DNA of 9,306 bases from a virus (taxonomy: Duplodnaviria; Heunggongvirae; Uroviricota; Caudoviricetes), in IMG/VR virus record IMGVR_UViG_3300013942_000118, positions 1-9,306 of that record; one strand, given 5' to 3'. Numbering within the stretch: position 1 is the stretch's first letter; every line of letters starts with the position of its first letter. The position numbers and the translations under genes are program-made. Positions 1 through 6,125 of the stretch are shown here, in pieces. The notes beneath the pieces are model-generated. The model searched no databases. It worked only from the letters and a program-made list of their open reading frames with translations, and had not been told where the DNA came from.

Positions 1-825
1 TCACCCGGTGAAAGTACCAATAAAGGTTTCTACTTTGCTGTCTTTGAATTTTTCAACAAGCAGATCACGAAATTCGTTAGCCATTTCTTCCTGCACTGCT
101 TCCAGCTGAATAATGCGCAGAACCAGTACAGGGCGATCACCAGTGATAATGCTGAGGCGTAATTTAAACGGACGTTCTTTCAGGCCTTCAAACGGAACGC
201 ATTTAAACTCAAATGCTACTGGCATAATGTCTTTGGTTTTCGCTTCGACAGACTCCATCAGAGAGCGTTTGCCGCTGAAGTCATTGTCTTCAAAATCAGC
301 GGTCTGGTTTGCTTCAATCGTGATTTTACGGACCGCCGCAGCCGCTTTTGTTGCCTGAATGGCGTCACCATTAGCATCAAAGCCCACAAGGTAGTCGGCC
401 CAGTCTTCAATCCATTCTGCCAGTGACTTCTGGGAGTTACGCTCGCCGTTAACAGACAACAGGGCAGAGAACGGTGCTGTCTTTTTCAGTTTGAGAGTGG
501 CGGTGTTATCTGCGTGACCTGGTTCATCAATAGTACCCAGGTTAAGCATACTGACGGCTCGCATATTATCAGCATCGATAAAGCAGCGGGTGCCTTCATC
601 TGCAAGATCTTTAGAATAACGGGTAAAGTCATCGATGCTGGCAGTGGAAAGCGCACCACGGAAACGGAAGCGATTTAAATTAAATTTTTCCAGATCATGA
701 ATGCGGAAATTCTCAGGCAATGCCACAGCATCGGCACCAATCTTACTGATAATTTCATTAACACCCTGAGCAGAAATAAGGGCATGGATTTGATTAATTG
801 CGGTTGCGTCTAAGTTCTGAGACAT
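1..825 (-). CDS. yfdQ: DUF2303-family prophage protein (YfdQ-like), 274 aa
   Basis: Complete minus-strand ORF: ATG at 825-823, TGA at 3-1, GAGGA Shine-Dalgarno 6 nt upstream (complement of 833-837). Family assignment is from memory of YfdQ/DUF2303 in CPS-53-like prophages; no search run. Confidence 0.8.
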
Positions 826-890
826 AATAAGTCCTCACTATATAAAGATATTCAGTGATGAGATAAATAATCAGTTTATTAAAAACGATA

Positions 891-1253
891 TTAACGACCT
901 GCTGCGCGGAGTTTTCCGTCAGGTTCACCGGCAAGAGTCAGTAATTGTCCCTGGTCTTCCTGCAGAATAGTCAGGCGACCACCGCGATTGACATACATCG
1001 GCGTTTCGGTGGTGTCTTCTTCGGAAATTTTCCCGCGGTTAGTCGGGCGAACATATGAGAGTTTGTGTTTGATTTTTACACGGTTCTCATCAAACGGTTC
1101 GATTTCCAGGTTGAGCGAGACCTTACCTTTGGTTTTCGTGTTCATCACACCGGAAGCGACTTCACTGAGAACTGCGCCGATTTTGGTTTCAAATACGCCG
1201 CCGTCCAGCTCCCCGATAAATGCCTGCACATCAGTACTGCGTTCGCTAGCCAT
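891..1253 (-). CDS. Small prophage early protein, 120 aa (YfdP-like by recollection); start chosen at internal ATG
   Basis: The 226-aa track ORF has an Arg/Cys-rich, non-protein-like N-terminal 106 codons. The ATG at 1253-1251 (MASERSTDV...) has a GGGGAG Shine-Dalgarno 7 nt upstream and gives 120 aa directly upstream of, and co-oriented with, the DUF2303 gene. Stop TAA at 893-891. Confidence 0.65.
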   Translation of the reverse strand: MASERSTDVQAFIGELDGGVFETKIGAVLSEVASGVMNTKTKGKVSLNLEIEPFDENRVKIKHKLSYVRPTNRGKISEEDTTETPMYVNRGGRLTILQEDQGQLLTLAGEPDGKLRAAGR

Positions 1254-1271
1254 TTTGCTGCTCCCCATCAT

Positions 1272-1287
1272 ATCGACCCTGCAGGGT
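1272..1287. repeat. 16-bp perfect palindrome CGACCCTGCAGGGTCG in the leader of the leftward early operon
   Basis: Read directly from sequence; lies 19-34 nt upstream of the 120-aa gene start on the minus strand. Confidence 0.8.
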
Positions 1288-1302
1288 CGGTTGGTTTCTC
1301 CA

Positions 1303-1390
1303 CAAAACAGAGAAGAACACCTGCGGTGGCAGCCGCCCGGATGGATTGGGTTATGAGCCCGTCGTCCGGTGATGCTCTTCTCTGTTTTGT
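1303..1390. repeat. 15-bp perfect inverted repeat (ACAAAACAGAGAAGA / TCTTCTCTGTTTTGT) enclosing a 58-nt GC-rich loop
   Basis: Arms at 1303-1317 and 1376-1390 are exact reverse complements; read directly from sequence. Function unknown. Confidence 0.8.
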
Positions 1391-1722
1391 AAAAAGGACG
1401 GTACCAGCCGGAAGCAAGGGTACAAGCTGATACCGCCAGGACTACACACAGCATAAAGTTGTGGTGCCGGGTGCCTCCCGGTGCCTGGCGAAGGTTGCAC
1501 ACCAGGCGGGTGGGTATCCACAGAAGGTCGACTGTCAGCCTCAACCTTAACCCGCGTGCGCTGAGCCGCATTCACCACAACGCTAAGGATTCTCTCTGGT
1601 TGAAAATACTTAGCTGTTATGTGCCTGCTTTTAGCCACATCAGGCGAGGTGGACCTAGTTATTCCCCAACAACAAGGATTTGGTTAATCTGGATATCCCC
1701 AACAACTAGCTGAGTATTCAAC

Positions 1723-2244
1723 GTGATAGCTGAACTGTCTGCGGCTATGGCCGCTATAAAGGAGACTGCCGGTCTTGCTAAGGTTATTAATGACGCGAAA
1801 ACGGATGCAGAAGTTAAAGCTGCAACCATTGAACTCCAGAACAAACTAATCACGCTTCAGGCAGAATGCTTCTCTCTTGGCGATGCGATCCGCCTTCGTG
1901 ATGAAGAGGTGATGCATCTCAAAGCAAAAATTGCAGAGTTTGAAGATTTTTGTGCCAAGGTAGAAGGATATGTCCTTGATCAGCTTGACTCTGGTGCTTT
2001 TGTTTACTCTAAAAATGAAATTGTGAGTGGAAAAGAAATAACTGTGCATCTGTGCCCACTTTGTTATTCCAAAAATATAAAATCGATACTTCATCCGCTT
2101 CCAGTAGGTAAAACTTCTCATTTTCTTACAAGCCGTTGCCTTCACTGTGAAAATAAATTTCTTATGGAAAAAAATCCGATGTACGAACGACCAAGATCAT
2201 TACGTGAGTTGGGGCGAGATCTGAATTCGCCTTGGATTCCTTAA
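1723..2244 (+). CDS. Hypothetical protein with N-terminal coiled-coil and C-terminal CxxC-x25-CxxC zinc-ribbon, 173 aa from GTG 1723 (165 aa from ATG 1747)
   Basis: Clean ORF ending TAA 2242-2244 and followed by an intrinsic terminator. Markedly AT-rich compared with the flanking DNA, by eye. Heptad-like charged N-terminus, then HLCPLC...RCLHCE. No obvious Shine-Dalgarno or sigma70 promoter upstream. Transcribed convergently with the PL-like promoter. Confidence 0.55.
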   Translation: MIAELSAAMAAIKETAGLAKVINDAKTDAEVKAATIELQNKLITLQAECFSLGDAIRLRDEEVMHLKAKIAEFEDFCAKVEGYVLDQLDSGAFVYSKNEIVSGKEITVHLCPLCYSKNIKSILHPLPVGKTSHFLTSRCLHCENKFLMEKNPMYERPRSLRELGRDLNSPWIP

Positions 2245-2287
2245 ATCTTGCATTGGTTGGATGATACCCAGATTGTTAAAGAGCTAA

Positions 2288-2309
2288 GCGTCCTGTAGGG
2301 CGCTTTTTT
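2288..2309 (+). terminator. Rho-independent terminator downstream of the 173-aa ORF
   Basis: Stem GCGTCC (2288-2293) / GGGCGC (2298-2303) with one G-U pair, loop TGTA, followed by TTTTTT (2304-2309). Confidence 0.6.
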
Positions 2310-2388
2310 GTTGCTAACGAATCATCCTGGACTTCATATGCCCCAGGCGGATACTTCGTGGGCGTCCTGCCTGTTTGTTGTTTCTCTT

Positions 2389-2425
2389 GGGTACATTATG
2401 TATCTCAAAGGTACATTGTCAAGTA
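2389..2425 (-). promoter_or_regulatory. PL-like leftward promoter with GTAC-containing operator half-sites (OL-like)
   Basis: On the minus strand: TTGACA (complement of 2417-2422), 16-nt spacer, CATAAT (complement of 2395-2400). Overlapped by repeated GGTACATT motifs that match the GTAC cores of the operators at 3152-3223. Confidence 0.45.
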
Positions 2426-2449
2426 TAAAAAAACCTGCCGAAGCAGGTT
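2426..2449 (-). terminator. Rho-independent terminator of the repressor gene
   Basis: On the minus strand: stem CCTGC / GCAGG (plus 2434-2438 and 2443-2447), loop TTCG, followed by a U-run (plus A-run 2427-2433). Begins 13 nt after the repressor stop. Confidence 0.65.
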
Positions 2450-2461
2450 CATAAACATTGA

Positions 2462-3136
2462 TTAGGCTTTGATTTTGTATCTTCTTGGTTTTCCTGAGAA
2501 AATCACAGTTCCAATTATAGAGCAATTACCGTTGATCTTAATGTAAGGCTCAGGCCAGTTTGGGTTTAACGCTTTGAGATAACGCTGTGTCCCATCTTCT
2601 ATCAACCTTTTGAAGGTGGTTTCACCTGTATCGTGCATCAATGCAATAACGTCGTCACCGTGGCAGGCAGGTACTTCAGGATCGACAAAAATCATGTCTC
2701 CCGGGCGGTACTCATCAATCATTGAATCACCTATCACCCGCAAGATATAAGTCATTTCCCCACAGGGTACAGGGCAGGGATACGTTTCTGCTGTGCTCAA
2801 ATCAACCTCAGAATATCCAACTTCTTTCCATGCTCCGGCCTGTACCCATGATATGACAGGGACTAATGTGATTTGTTTATTAGTGATTGAAACATCAGGT
2901 TTTTTTGTGATGTTCGTTGTCTGGTGTTCTTGATCGAGCCATCCGACAGGCAGGTCGAAACATTTTTCGATGTGTCGTGCCATGCTGTCACCGATATTTT
3001 TAGTAGCACCATCTCCCATAAACCTGCTGGTCTGGGTTGGCTCGCGATCAATCATAGTGGCAAAGGAAGAATTCCCGCCAACACCATCTCTCAGTTTTCT
3101 GGCGTTAGACCGCCGGATGTCATGGATTGTTTTCAT
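2462..3136 (-). CDS. Prophage CI-like repressor, HTH plus S24 (LexA-like) autopeptidase domain, 224 aa
   Basis: ORF ATG 3136-3134 to TAA 2464-2462. C-terminal half carries an Ala-Gly candidate cleavage site (VQAGAW), the GDSM serine motif and a downstream Lys (TFKRL), typical of the LexA/cI S24 fold. Sits divergent from a Cro-like gene across a palindromic operator region. No Shine-Dalgarno before the ATG. Confidence 0.9.
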   Translation of the reverse strand: MKTIHDIRRSNARKLRDGVGGNSSFATMIDREPTQTSRFMGDGATKNIGDSMARHIEKCFDLPVGWLDQEHQTTNITKKPDVSITNKQITLVPVISWVQAGAWKEVGYSEVDLSTAETYPCPVPCGEMTYILRVIGDSMIDEYRPGDMIFVDPEVPACHGDDVIALMHDTGETTFKRLIEDGTQRYLKALNPNWPEPYIKINGNCSIIGTVIFSGKPRRYKIKA

Positions 3137-3226
3137 AACGAAATTAAAACCCTTGTACCGTTAAGGTACAAGTATCTTGAAGGTTCATTTCAATCATGTA
3201 ATATGTACACCGGAGGTACATATTGT
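3137..3226. promoter_or_regulatory. Divergent PRM/PR-type control region with two palindromic operators
   Basis: Operator 1 is CTTGTACC-N5-GGTACAAG (3152-3172); operator 2 is ATATGTAC-N7-GTACATAT (3201-3223). Candidate PR on plus: TTGAAG (3177-3182), 16-nt spacer, TAATAT (3199-3204), GGAGG Shine-Dalgarno 3212-3216, cro ATG 3227. Candidate PRM on minus: TTGTAC (complement of 3166-3171), 17-nt spacer, TTTAAT (complement of 3143-3148), ending about 6 nt before the repressor ATG. Confidence 0.6.
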
Positions 3227-3427
3227 ATGAAAGCGTATTGGGACTCTTTAACCAAAGAACAGCAGGGCGAGTTGGCCGGAAAAGTTGGCTCAACACCTAG
3301 CTACTTACGGCTGGTTTTCAATGGCTATAAAAAAGCCAGTTTTGTGCTGGCTAAAAAACTTGAGCAATGCACGTCAGGTGCAATTACGAAATCTGACTTA
3401 AGACCGGATATCTATCCGAAAGATTAG
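3227..3427 (+). CDS. Cro/YdaS-like small HTH regulator, 66 aa
   Basis: ATG at 3227 is in frame inside the longer track ORF and has a GGAGG Shine-Dalgarno 10 nt upstream; TAG at 3425-3427. Product MKAYWDSLTKEQQGELAGKVGSTPSYLRLVFNG... resembles YdaS/Cro-family HTH proteins. Divergent from the repressor. Confidence 0.8.
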   Translation: MKAYWDSLTKEQQGELAGKVGSTPSYLRLVFNGYKKASFVLAKKLEQCTSGAITKSDLRPDIYPKD

Positions 3428-3458
3428 CAGAACACTTTCAATTTTTAACCACAGAACG

Positions 3459-4022
3459 ATGAGGCTAATCGTGGGTAAGCATCACTGGAAAATAGAAAAA
3501 CAGCCTGAGTGGTACGTGAAAGCTGTCAGAAAAACTATCGCGGCGTTGCCGGGTGGTTACGCTGAAGCGGCTGACTGGCTGGATGTAACAGAGAACGCAT
3601 TATTTAACCGCCTTCGTGCCGATGGCGATCAGATTTTCCCGCTGGGATGGGCAATGATTTTGCAACGTGCTGGTGGAACTCACTTCATTGCTGACGCTGT
3701 GGCGCAGTCTGCAAATGGCGTCTTTGTGTCTCTTCCTGACGTCGAGGATGTGGACAACGCCGATATTAACCAGCGTCTGCTGGAAGTCATTGAACAGATC
3801 GGCAGTTATTCAAAACAGATTCGTTCAGCAATCGAAGACGGTGTAGTGGAACCGCATGAGAAGACAGCAATTAACGACGAGCTGTATCTCTCAATTTCGA
3901 AGCTGCAGGAGCATGCAGCACTGGTCTACAAAATCTTTTGCATTTCAGAAAGTAATGACGCCCGCGAGTGTGCAGCTCCGGGCGCCGTGGCGTGTCGTGA
4001 CTGTGGAGAAACTAACGCATGA
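3459..4022 (+). CDS. CII-like phage regulatory protein (CP76/YdaT-like family), 187 aa
   Basis: ORF immediately after the Cro-like gene, the usual position of cII/ydaT. Family assignment from memory, moderate. Start is uncertain: ATG 3459 has a weak Shine-Dalgarno, while in-frame GTG 3471 is preceded by GAGG. Stop overlaps the next ATG as ATGA. Confidence 0.65.
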
Positions 4023-4377
4023 ACAGTTTAACAACACACTACCGTCGCTCGCAACTGATTGCGCTTCCTGTACCGGGTGGAAAAGCGAAGGTGGAGTATT
4101 GCTATGCAGTTAATGTACCAGGTGACAGGGAAATTGTAACCCACAGCTTTGCTGAGTGGGCTGTGGGTGATTTCAACCGGCAGAAGGAGACAGTCCTTTG
4201 CGACAAGTTAACCGCTGGTTCAAAGATCACTACGGAGTGCCCGTCAGAGTCATTCGTTGGGAGCCGGAAACACAACGAGTTATCTACCTCCGCGAAGGCT
4301 ATGAGCATGAGTGCTTCAGCCCGCTCGAACAGTTTCGTCGTAAATTCAGGGAAATAGAGGTCGGTCATGAGCACTAA
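4019..4377 (+). pseudogene. Unknown early gene apparently split over two reading frames (one-base frameshift near 4170-4215), or a 112-aa ORF plus an overlapping 59-aa TTG-initiated ORF
   Basis: Frame of ATG 4019 gives a plausible N-terminus but a low-complexity Ser/Ala-rich tail to 4357. The -1 frame from about 4171 to TAA 4375-4377 reads ...[58 protein letters not shown], which looks like genuine protein and ends 8 nt into the next gene. No XXXYYYZ slippery heptamer seen. Confidence 0.4.
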
Positions 4378-5308
4378 ATTAACCGGCTATGTATGGGATG
4401 GTTGCGCTGCATCAGGCATGAAATTATCCAGCGTGGCAATTATGGCCCGCCTGGCTGATTTCAGTAATGACGAAGGTGTGTGCTGGCCATCAATTGAAAC
4501 TATTGCCCGTCAGATTGGCGCGGGGATGAGTACCGTCAGGACGGCTATCGCACGGCTGGAAGCAGAAGGCTGGTTAACGCGTAAGGCGCGTCGCCAGGGT
4601 AACCGCAATGCGTCGAATGTTTATCAGCTTAACGTTGCGAAGCTTCAGGCAGCGGCATTTTCTCAACTGTCAGATTCTGACCCGTCAAAATCTGACGCAT
4701 CAAAATCTGACCCGTCAAAATTTGATGCGTCGAAATCTGGCAAAAAAGCGGGTTTTCACCCGTCAGAATCTGGCGGGGATCCGTCAGTAAAATCAAAACA
4801 TGATCCGTCAGATAAAAAACCTTCTCGTCCGGACGCTTCGCAACCGGACACGCAGACGGATGAACAGGATTTTTTAACTCGCCATCCTGATGCGGTTGTA
4901 TTCAGCCCTAAAAAGCGCCAGTGGGGAACGCAGGATGATTTGACCTGCGCACAGTGGCTCTGGAAAAAAATCATCGCCCTGTACGAGCAAGCCGCCGCAT
5001 GTGACGGCGAGGTGGTTCGTCCCAAAGAACCGAACTGGACAGCCTGGGCAAACGAAATTCGCCTGATGTGTGTACAGGATGGTCGTACTCACAAACAAAT
5101 CTGCGAGATGTACAGCCGCGTCAGCCGCGATCCGTTCTGGTGCCGTAACGTGCTCAGCCCGTCGAAGTTGCGGGAAAAATGGGATGAGCTTTCCCTGCGC
5201 TTATCACCGTCCGTCAGCACGTACACCGAAAAACGCGAAGACCCGTACTTCAAATCCAGTTACGACAACGTGGACTACAGCCAGATCCCGGCAGGATTCA
5301 GGGGGTGA
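4367..5308 (+). CDS. Replication initiator (lambda O-like: N-terminal winged-helix DNA-binding domain, acidic/Ser-Pro-rich linker, C-terminal domain), 313 aa
   Basis: ATG 4367 with GAGG Shine-Dalgarno 6 nt upstream; TGA 5306-5308. N-terminal region resembles phage replication-initiator HTH domains. An iteron array lies inside the coding sequence, as for ori in lambda O. Sits at the O position of the early-right operon. Confidence 0.75.
   Translation: MSTKLTGYVWDGCAASGMKLSSVAIMARLADFSNDEGVCWPSIETIARQIGAGMSTVRTAIARLEAEGWLTRKARRQGNRNASNVYQLNVAKLQAAAFSQLSDSDPSKSDASKSDPSKFDASKSGKKAGFHPSESGGDPSVKSKHDPSDKKPSRPDASQPDTQTDEQDFLTRHPDAVVFSPKKRQWGTQDDLTCAQWLWKKIIALYEQAAACDGEVVRPKEPNWTAWANEIRLMCVQDGRTHKQICEMYSRVSRDPFWCRNVLSPSKLREKWDELSLRLSPSVSTYTEKREDPYFKSSYDNVDYSQIPAGFRG
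4669..4740. repeat. Iteron-like tandem array (about 5 units of 14-15 bp, consensus near CCGTCAAAATCTGA), putative phage origin
   Basis: Units GTCAGATTCTGAC (4669), GTCAAAATCTGAC (4684), ATCAAAATCTGAC (4698), GTCAAAATTTGAT (4714), GTCGAAATCTGGC (4728). Degenerate CCGTCAG copies continue to about 4815. Several units are internally palindromic. The array encodes the DPSKSDASKSDPSKFDASKS repeat in the initiator. Confidence 0.6.
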
Positions 5309-5310
5309 TC

Positions 5311-5799
5311 ATGAGTCTGTTAAATGACGTTCAGAAATTCATTGAAGCCCATCCGGGGTGTACTTCCGGAGACATTGCGGATGCTTTTGCAGGTTACTCA
5401 CGGCAGCGCGTTCTGCAGTCTGCAAGCAAGTTACGTCAGAGTGGGCGTGTGGCTCACCGTTGTGAAGGAGATACACGCAGACATTTCCCGCGCCTGACTG
5501 AGAGAGCGCAGGAGCCGGAACCACAACCAGTTCGTGAAACCAGACCTGTGCGCAATTTCTATGTCGGCACTAACGATCCACGGGTGATTTTGTGCCTGAC
5601 CCGCCAGGCTGAAGAACTGGAGTCCAGGGGCTTATACCGTCGTGCTGCAACGGTGTGGATGGCGGCATTCCGTGAAAGCCACTCCCAGCCAGAACGAAAC
5701 AATTTTCTGGCGCGTCGTGAACGGTGTTTACGGAAAAGCAGTAAGCGGGCTGCATCGGGTGAAGAGTGGTATCTGTCAGGGAATTACGTGGGGGCGTAA
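5311..5799 (+). CDS. PerC-family-like transcriptional regulator with an N-terminal HTH-like extension, 162 aa
   Basis: ATG 5311 with GGGGG Shine-Dalgarno 5 nt upstream (the track start GTG 5305 overlaps the previous stop). C-terminal segment AEELESRGLYRRAATVWMAAFRE...RRERCL resembles the PerC/Pch signature. From memory only, moderate. Confidence 0.55.
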   Translation: MSLLNDVQKFIEAHPGCTSGDIADAFAGYSRQRVLQSASKLRQSGRVAHRCEGDTRRHFPRLTERAQEPEPQPVRETRPVRNFYVGTNDPRVILCLTRQAEELESRGLYRRAATVWMAAFRESHSQPERNNFLARRERCLRKSSKRAASGEEWYLSGNYVGA

Positions 5800-6125
5800 T
5801 GACGACGTTAACTCAATGCCAGCAGCAGGTGCTGGATATGCTGATTTCTTATCAGAAAGAGCGTGGCTTTCCGCCAACCAATCAGGAGGTGGCAACCATG
5901 CTGGGATACCGTTCGGTGAATGCAGCGGTGGAGCATCTTCGCGCACTGGAGAAAAAAGGCGTCATCACGATAAAGCGTGGCGTGGCACGGGGGATAACGC
6001 TTCATACCGCTGTGAAGGACGACGACAGCGAGGCGGTCGGGATTATCCGCGCACTGCTTGCCGGTGAGGAAAACGCCAGGCTGCGTGCAGCCCACTGGTT
6101 ACATGAGAGGGGCCTGAAAGTATGA
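5799..6125 (+). CDS. LexA N-terminal DNA-binding-domain paralogue lacking the S24 peptidase domain, 108 aa
   Basis: Start ATG 5799 overlaps the upstream stop (TAATG). LTQCQQQVLDMLISYQKERGFPPTNQEVATMLGYRSVNAAVEHLRALEKKGVITIKRGVARGITL aligns by eye with E. coli LexA residues about 4-68 at roughly half identity. The protein stops after about 40 further residues with no peptidase motifs. Confidence 0.8.
   Translation: MTTLTQCQQQVLDMLISYQKERGFPPTNQEVATMLGYRSVNAAVEHLRALEKKGVITIKRGVARGITLHTAVKDDDSEAVGIIRALLAGEENARLRAAHWLHERGLKV

Follow-up and report, generated by a model that had tools for sequence, protein, structure and literature searches.

A phage-encoded LexA DNA-binding domain without the self-cleavage domain: a possible RecA-insensitive LexA surrogate in lambdoid prophages

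Introduction

Phage-encoded LexA homologues that lack a cleavage domain have a precedent in gp6 of the Bacillus phage GIL01, a 66-amino-acid (aa) truncated LexA homologue that activates the late promoter P3 from a site lying across its −35 element, binds GaCACA-nn-TGTGaC, and relies on K38 of its recognition helix (PMC6182141). The subject here is a gene whose 108-aa product consists of a LexA-type DNA-binding domain (DBD) followed by a short helical tail. It lies in a stretch of viral DNA of 9,306 nucleotides (nt), below called the window (Caudoviricetes; IMG/VR record IMGVR_UViG_3300013942_000118, positions 1 to 9,306). An earlier note, made from the sequence alone, had read the product as a prophage-encoded LexA DBD that RecA cannot inactivate, and that could occupy SOS boxes or form mixed complexes, so modulating the host SOS response or prophage induction.

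Two further kinds of system are close enough to be instructive. In the LexA bacterial two-hybrid design (Dmitrova et al., 1998), the DBD has likewise lost the LexA domain for dimerisation and RecA-responsive cleavage and is joined to a different dimerising element; as reviewed in PMC12369361, repression of an SOS-type operator by these fusions requires that their partners dimerise. The constructs are artificial, whereas the tail of the phage protein is natural and conserved, and a putative dimeriser. GIL01 gp7 stabilises LexA on DNA after damage, thereby suppressing a co-resident prophage (PMC9700832). Like prophage SOS modulators of the gp7 and DinI type, the 108-aa protein would be a phage-borne means of restoring LexA-type repression or of damping RecA*; those proteins bind LexA or RecA and not DNA, whereas the LexA-DBD-only protein would itself occupy operators. 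With the two-hybrid fusions and gp7 as precedents, it would be plausible, by analogy, for repression to be re-imposed in a form that is proof against RecA*.

The reading that we prefer, at a probability of about 0.45, is that the 108-aa protein is a LexA surrogate insensitive to RecA, which a lambdoid prophage expresses from its early-right operon and which occupies SOS-type operators. The gene itself has long been annotated and is very common, and gp6, the nearest analogue that has been characterised, already provides the example of a phage LexA homologue without the cleavage domain. What is new is descriptive: a conserved and unclassified helical tail, the retention of LexA contacts, the breadth of the family, and the embedding of one subfamily among SOS boxes, dinI and recA.

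A LexA-type winged helix with a helical tail

The earlier note had put the likeness to the LexA N-terminal domain, by eye, at roughly half identity, and the alignments bear this out. The Pfam profile LexA_DNA_bind (PF01726) covers residues 1-65 of the product over the whole of its length (65/65 profile positions; E 2.9e-19, 69 bits, cutoff 23.7). Its top matches among PDB sequences are those of E. coli LexA (1lea, 1jhh, and 3jso; phmmer, E ~1e-15), to which it is identical at 34 of 69 positions (~49%) over residues 2-70, without gaps in the phmmer alignment. An AlphaFold2 model built from a 36-sequence alignment (mean confidence score, pLDDT, 83.8) contains a LexA-type winged helix-turn-helix (Table 1), for which the best Foldseek match is the LexA-DNA complex 3jso (root-mean-square deviation 0.9 Å over 68 residues, 50% identity); Foldseek identities to LexA are 49-51%. 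Among PHROG families, phrog_362 (“transcriptional repressor,” with the target unstated) is matched over positions 1-106 of 106 with E 1.6e-59, as against only 4.4e-15 for phrog_3502, the family of GIL01 gp6.

PMC13416735, citing Knegtel 1995, gives S39, N41, A42, E44, and E45 as the residues of LexA that contact DNA, and N41 is given as a contact also in PMC5999292. Four of these five (S39, N41, A42, and E45) are kept in the 108-aa protein, with V at position 44. Kept as well is R64-G65-I66 in the wing, which we take to be a DNA-contact element of LexA. Across the 36 family members S39, N41, K53, and R64-G65-I66 are invariant, 83% keep A42, and 69% have E or D at position 45; position 38 is R in the 108-aa protein and R, S, or A across the family. 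Judged from sequence and model, the domain is a bona fide winged helix with LexA contacts, and its identification as such stands up both to alignment and to modelling.

The remainder of LexA is missing. A Pfam scan finds no Peptidase_S24 (PF00717) match in the 108-aa protein, and rusA begins at once after residue 108, leaving no remains of an S24 domain. The NCBIfam lexA equivalog model TIGR00498 aligns over no more than positions 1-91 of 203, and the score of 70.5 bits falls short of the cutoff of 110.95, so that by this test the product is not LexA proper: the winged-helix domain is present, while the S24 domain, the Ala-Gly bond, and a score above the cutoff are not. Set beside E. coli LexA (1lea, 3jso), with which it shares the fold and S39, N41, A42, E45, K53, and R64-G65-I66, the phage protein lacks the S24 autoprotease, the catalytic Ser/Lys and a conserved Ala-Gly; it has the linker and C-terminal domain swapped for a 35-aa helical hairpin, and is the product of a phage-borne nin-region gene.

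The further claim of the earlier note, that no Ala-Gly cleavage site is reached before the end of the protein, is literally wrong, as A88-G89 occurs within the segment LLAGEE, and HMMER pairs LLAGE with the VAAGE of LexA that holds the A84-G85 cleavage bond. It is right in substance. The dipeptide varies among orthologues (AN, AK, VG, ER, TR, DD, EE, and others) and in the AlphaFold2 model it sits inside a helix, not in an extended loop; because it is unconserved and predicted to be helical, A88-G89 is not a meaningful cleavage site, and the conserved self-cleavage site is in substance absent. That A88-G89 might be a vestige of the cleavage site, or a pseudo-substrate, was considered and rejected, since the dipeptide is not conserved in the family.

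The tail that stands in place of the S24 domain is predicted to form two helices (Table 1). Eleven of its apolar positions are conserved in relatives of 40-98% identity (A79, V80, L82, L83, L86, L87, A93, A97, which is invariant, I98, an aromatic residue at 100, and L101), and they are spread over more than one helix face. Searched alone against Pfam and PDB sequences, the tail gave no credible match (best E 0.003-0.5, far below the cut-off). We infer that it is a dimerisation or partner-binding element, because conserved apolar positions covering more than one helix face would let it pack on a second copy of the protein or on some other partner. LexA dimerises via its C-terminal domain. Mixed complexes with LexA by this usual route, which the earlier note had entertained, are unlikely for a protein that lacks that domain and has its own helical tail instead.

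SOS boxes upstream of the 130-135-aa relatives

A form of 130-135 aa with an N-terminal extension occurs in Klebsiella, Raoultella, and Enterobacter, and the Klebsiella 130-aa form matches phrog_362 in full. Sequences were scored for SOS boxes with a matrix whose top matches are the textbook TACTGT-N8-ACAGTA. In every sampled context of this subfamily, a box of 21-27 bits is found 0.4-1.5 kb upstream of the gene and shares its orientation, and the genes in between are all short and co-directional; 7 Mb of shuffled sequence contained no box of at least 20 bits. The first gene past the box is a dinI homologue in K. pneumoniae/K. variicola, K. oxytoca, and Raoultella (where the box overlaps the predicted −10 of dinI), orf82 in Enterobacter, and a phage recA in the metagenomic contig L107. 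The subfamily gene is in this way physically linked to genes of the RecA pathway (dinI, recA), and the presence of a strong box in every sampled context leads to the prediction that it is SOS-induced. The absence of an S24 domain agrees with the proposal that RecA could not inactivate proteins of this kind, and a connection to the SOS response would fit the SOS-box, dinI, and recA operons around these relatives.

At the loci concerned (L004-L007 and L104-L106 from Klebsiella and Raoultella, L092-L093 from Enterobacter, and L107), the nin/Q operon is separated from the early region by other genes, which are on the reverse strand in L004-7 and L092-3 and form a co-directional restriction-modification pair in L104. 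The order in these operons is SOS box, dinI or phage recA, orf77-96 (phrog_1813), LexA-DBD gene, orf66/67 (phrog_1212), rusA (in some), DUF968, and Q. Where the operon is headed by an SOS box in this manner, Q could be under direct LexA control.

A proposed role at SOS-type operators

If the 108-aa protein is a LexA surrogate, its tail hairpin would make it dimeric, and the dimer would bind CTGT-containing, SOS-box-like operators. The protein would be made on prophage derepression or, in the 130-aa subfamily, straight from a LexA-controlled promoter; both moments of expression would coincide with the destruction of host LexA, and repression would be re-imposed at LexA-controlled promoters in a way that RecA* could not reverse. 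Its targets would be host SOS genes together with LexA-controlled genes of its own or co-resident mobile elements (dinI operons, antirepressors, colicins). The benefit to the phage is speculative, and might lie in SOS damping, in timing, or in silencing rival SOS-induced elements. The N-terminal fragment that remains after LexA cleavage keeps some operator binding. This fragment is reportedly removed by ClpXP after cleavage, in work of 2003 ascribed to Neher and colleagues; as it both binds operators and is cleared, a LexA DBD that is stable may well be physiologically consequential.

Several points weigh against such a role. In the window, CTGT-N8-ACAG with at most one mismatch occurs 6 times where 3.35 matches are expected, which is not significant; the matrix scan finds nothing of 10 bits or more; and matches to CTGT-Nx-ACAG at spacings of 0-20 are scattered through coding sequence at chance level, none of them conserved tellingly. 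Strong SOS boxes within 10 kb on either side occur at only 39 of 80 near-identical IMG/VR loci, and they fall in a few unrelated modules: within an SfII-type cI, at the 5′ end of a late-region methyltransferase gene, and upstream of an SfIV-type KilA-N gene. There is no obligatory SOS-box target in cis, and an obligatory box near the gene was rejected as a candidate on these counts. The scoring matrix was itself assembled from about 21 E. coli boxes. The DNA specificity may have drifted from that of LexA, given the changes at positions 44 and 45: E44 is replaced, and several members of the Klebsiella type have L or T in place of E45. The tail is a putative dimeriser, and a different dimer would impose a half-site spacing of its own. 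A search of the full-text literature found no DNA-binding, oligomerisation, reporter, or other functional studies of the enterobacterial family; gp6 and gp7 of GIL01 were the only precedents to emerge from it.

The boxes found in these viral loci can be described briefly. In 18 of the 80, the perfect or almost perfect box TACTGTTTTTATATACAGTA (25.8-27 bits, with a one-base variant in 7 loci) is inside the coding sequence of an SfII-type cI; it is conserved between Shigella/E. coli and Cronobacter, at 16446-16465 in SfII (L002) and at about 2190-2209 in Cronobacter prophages (L008-L011), and it might mark a promoter under LexA control, internal or antisense. Many lambdoid prophages, about 20 of the 80 loci among them, carry an SOS-like box, TACTGTAAAAATAAACAGTG (22.3 bits; 14038-14057 in L014, 11805-11824 in L103), within the opening codons (MKNTVKINSV) of the N6/N4 DNA methyltransferase gene that directly precedes the lysis genes. 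In SfIV (L003), the box TACTGTATTTATGAACAGTA (23.8 bits) is located at 20765-20784 in a 160-nt spacer between rusA and KilA-N that is absent from the window, which suggests that the antirepressor-like KilA-N gene of SfIV may be under LexA control.

In a wider form that we regard as doubtful, the family as a whole would be a natural “RecA-proof LexA,” a dimeric LexA-DBD protein that re-closes SOS-box promoters, serving lambdoid phages (those of Stx2a and Stx2c included) in truncating the SOS response and silencing rivals, and serving as a feedback module in Klebsiella, Raoultella, and Enterobacter. If this were true, lambdoid phages would silence LexA-controlled rivals during lytic growth (antirepressor-induced prophages, colicins, integrons), while the Klebsiella, Raoultella, and Enterobacter protein, with dinI or recA, would constitute a LexA-controlled negative feedback that sets a damage threshold for Q and the late genes. 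Should the protein occupy SOS boxes in an uncleavable form, the phage would encode a brake on the SOS regulon, with possible effects on the hierarchy in which prophages are induced, on the yield of Shiga toxin following antibiotics, on SOS mutagenesis, and on LexA-controlled mobile elements in the same cell; the protein may be relevant to SOS control and to the biology of Stx phages. It would also be a natural case of the “LexA DBD plus foreign dimeriser” of the two-hybrid design.

Conservation and distribution

The 327-bp gene is present at 95-100% identity in 2233 of 5426 complete E. coli genomes (~41%), in up to four copies per genome. It is also carried by 50 deposited phage genomes, including SfII, SfIV, mEp460, 1720a-02, Stx2a_1447/WGPS2, and many Stx2c phages, to which a protein-level search adds SfV and cdtI, and by more than 560 IMG/VR loci. 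Serotype-converting Shigella phages are among its carriers. The labels in these records vary (“LexA DNA binding domain protein,” “LexA-like protein,” “repressor, lexA family”). The copy in E. coli MEI008 (WP_000210154.1) has 100% nucleotide identity to that of the window. Among 56 distinct nucleotide alleles, non-synonymous divergence (dN) is 0-0.012 and synonymous divergence (dS) 0.05-0.20, with no stop codons; the gene is under strong purifying selection.

The short architecture is shared by relatives at 40-60% identity, as found by an exhaustive HMMER scan and a profile search; besides the longer form described above, there are relatives of 105-112 aa in Cronobacter, Atlantibacter, Kosakonia, Salmonella, and Citrobacter. 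Some distant matches (P0133, P0148, P0151, and others) have tandem pairs of LexA_DNA_bind in a single polypeptide of 160-350 aa, which would be an alternative way to bivalent binding without an S24 dimerisation domain.

The 108-aa protein is at least 97% identical across phages that differ in cI and operator type, and for this reason its target is not immunity-specific. The TGTAyC-N5-GGTACA immunity operators of the window (Table 1) were rejected as a target on the same ground, so that binding to this phage's own operators, raised in the earlier note, is unlikely.

Alternative functions

A phage-specific transcription factor with an operator of its own, other than an SOS box, is the alternative that survives best, and we rate it as rather unlikely. 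It would act in the manner of gp6, tuning for example the expression of Q, the late genes, the methyltransferase, or KilA-N. Both proteins are phage-encoded LexA DBDs without a cleavage domain, and gp6, which is expressed with early genes, is an activator whose specificity has changed, a precedent that also counts against SOS-type operators as the target here. The absence of an SOS box from the window is consistent with such a regulator, as are the variation at positions 44 and 45 within the family, the PHROG label of a transcriptional repressor with no stated target, and the fixed place of the gene, across genera, in a module of PerC-like, methyltransferase, LexA-like, rusA, antirepressor-like, DUF968, and Q genes. 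Unlike gp6, however, the 108-aa protein retains S39, N41, A42, and E45 of LexA in and beside its recognition helix; gp6 has no tail, belongs to a different PHROG (3502, its own best match), and gives no BLASTP alignment with the 108-aa protein. The surroundings of the gene yielded no conserved palindrome of a non-SOS kind, in a module so tightly packed that there is almost no intergenic DNA. A gp6-like regulator would be one more small nin-region regulator, of modest interest.

As a second alternative, which seems improbable, the protein might be a DNA-binding accessory of rusA, of the nuclease-like DUF968 gene, or of the methyltransferase, targeting or modulating recombination, resolution, or methylation. 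The overlap of its stop codon with the rusA start, and its conserved adjacency across genera to rusA, DUF968, and non-homologous methyltransferases, are what one would expect of an accessory. Each of these neighbours can nevertheless be dispensed with in one lineage or another: the methyltransferase is absent from the window, SfIV, MEI008, and the Klebsiella type, rusA is absent at Klebsiella and Raoultella loci, and in Cronobacter a reverse open reading frame (ORF) splits the LexA-like gene from rusA. The invariant residues, moreover, are those of a sequence-specific recognition helix.

It is highly improbable that the protein acts through protein-protein contacts, its tail docking on LexA, CI, UmuD, or RecA* as a pseudo-substrate or partner and so altering cleavage or forming mixed complexes. 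HMMER does align LLAGE with the cleavage region of LexA, and relatives are linked to dinI and recA, but the Ala-Gly is unconserved, the LLAGEE segment is predicted to be helical, and the dimer interface of LexA, in the C-terminal domain, is missing.

That the gene is merely what is left of a full-length lexA or cI-type gene, truncated and without function, is hardly credible and was rejected. The earlier note had named a truncated remnant as a possible refutation, and the decay of the window prophage (a frameshifted DUF968, a nonsense codon in Q, an insertion element) might suggest one. Against it stand a length and architecture common to thousands of genomes from several genera, the short architecture of relatives down to about 40% identity, a dN far below dS, rusA directly downstream with no S24 trace, and the presence of the gene in the viable phages SfII, SfIV, SfV, and mEp460.

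Operon and prophage context

The window is the early region of a lambdoid prophage. From the cI-like gene the order is cro-like, cII-like (YmfL), O-like (HTH_36), PerC-like, LexA-like, rusA, KilA-N, DUF968, Q, and an IS3-type transposase. The five TGTAyC-N5-GGTACA palindromes are presumably the OR and OL operators of an e14/SfIV-type immunity; their half-site includes TGTA, and their spacing is 3 bp wider than that of the SOS box. PADLOC defence models gave nothing meaningful on the window.

Table 1. Coordinates of the LexA-like gene, its parts, and other features of the window.
Feature	Position	Strand	Detail
LexA-DBD-only gene	5799..6125	+	ATG-to-TGA ORF, 108 aa; RefSeq name “LexA family transcriptional regulator”; PHROG 362 family
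Winged helix-turn-helix, LexA type	5799..6008	+	codons 1-70; helices 6-22, 28-35, 40-52; wing strands 56-58, 66-68
Recognition helix	5916..5954	+	VNAAVEHLRALEK (LexA counterpart PNAAEEHLKALAR); codons 40-52, S39 just before
C-terminal two-helix tail	6015..6107	+	codons 73-103; helices 73-88, 93-103; pLDDT 87-89
PerC-like gene (yfdN-like)	5305..5799	+	Pfam PerC E 7.8e-9; phrog_1324
rusA (Holliday-junction resolvase)	6122..6490	+	Pfam and PHROG RusA; tblastn with RusA protein of locus L001
10-N run in rusA	6370-6379		in place of ~33 nt
cI-like S24 repressor	2462-3136	-	lambdoid layout
OR operator/promoter region	3154..3220		three 17-bp palindromes TGTAyC-N5-GGTACA (3154-3170, 3171-3187, 3204-3220); repeat families D1, D2, I5-I7
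Two more TGTAyC-N5-GGTACA copies	2379-2395, 2399-2415		other side of cI-like gene; repeat analysis
DUF968	7308-8302		split by two frameshifts: 7314-7757, 7759-8094, 8096-8299
Q antiterminator	8305-8697		in-frame stop 8485-8487, Cys in relatives
IS3-family transposase	8998-9306		from 8998

The rightward transcript that reaches the LexA-like gene is presumed to start in the OR region. The stop codon of the PerC-like gene overlaps the ATG of the LexA-like gene (TAATG, 5796-5801), and the TGA of the latter overlaps the ATG of rusA (ATGA, 6122-6125), which bears out the translational coupling that had been proposed. Its assignment to the early-right operon also holds, the gene being rightward of the cI/cro switch with no terminator-like site predicted on the + strand over 3338-8236, which makes co-expression with the rightward early transcript a reasonable inference. 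KilA-N begins 18 nt after rusA.

In the window, E. coli, SfII, SfIV, Cronobacter, Atlantibacter, Salmonella, Kosakonia, and Enterobacter alike, the gene is positioned between replication and PerC genes (with the methyltransferase, where there is one) and rusA, DUF968, and Q. Adjacency to rusA is kept in E. coli, Salmonella, Atlantibacter, and Kosakonia, while a small ORF intervenes in Enterobacter and L107. In the majority of relatives a gene for a DNA methyltransferase stands between the PerC-like gene and the LexA-like one; it is missing in the window, SfIV, and E. coli MEI008. The enzymes that fill this slot (L001, L008, L094-L100) are non-homologous: a PF05869 Dam in E. coli and Cronobacter, a PF02086 D12 in Atlantibacter, Salmonella, and Kosakonia, and a PF00145+PF02086 fusion in L098.

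The prophage of the window is decaying, as seen in its DUF968, Q, and transposase genes (Table 1), and the LexA-like gene within it is intact.

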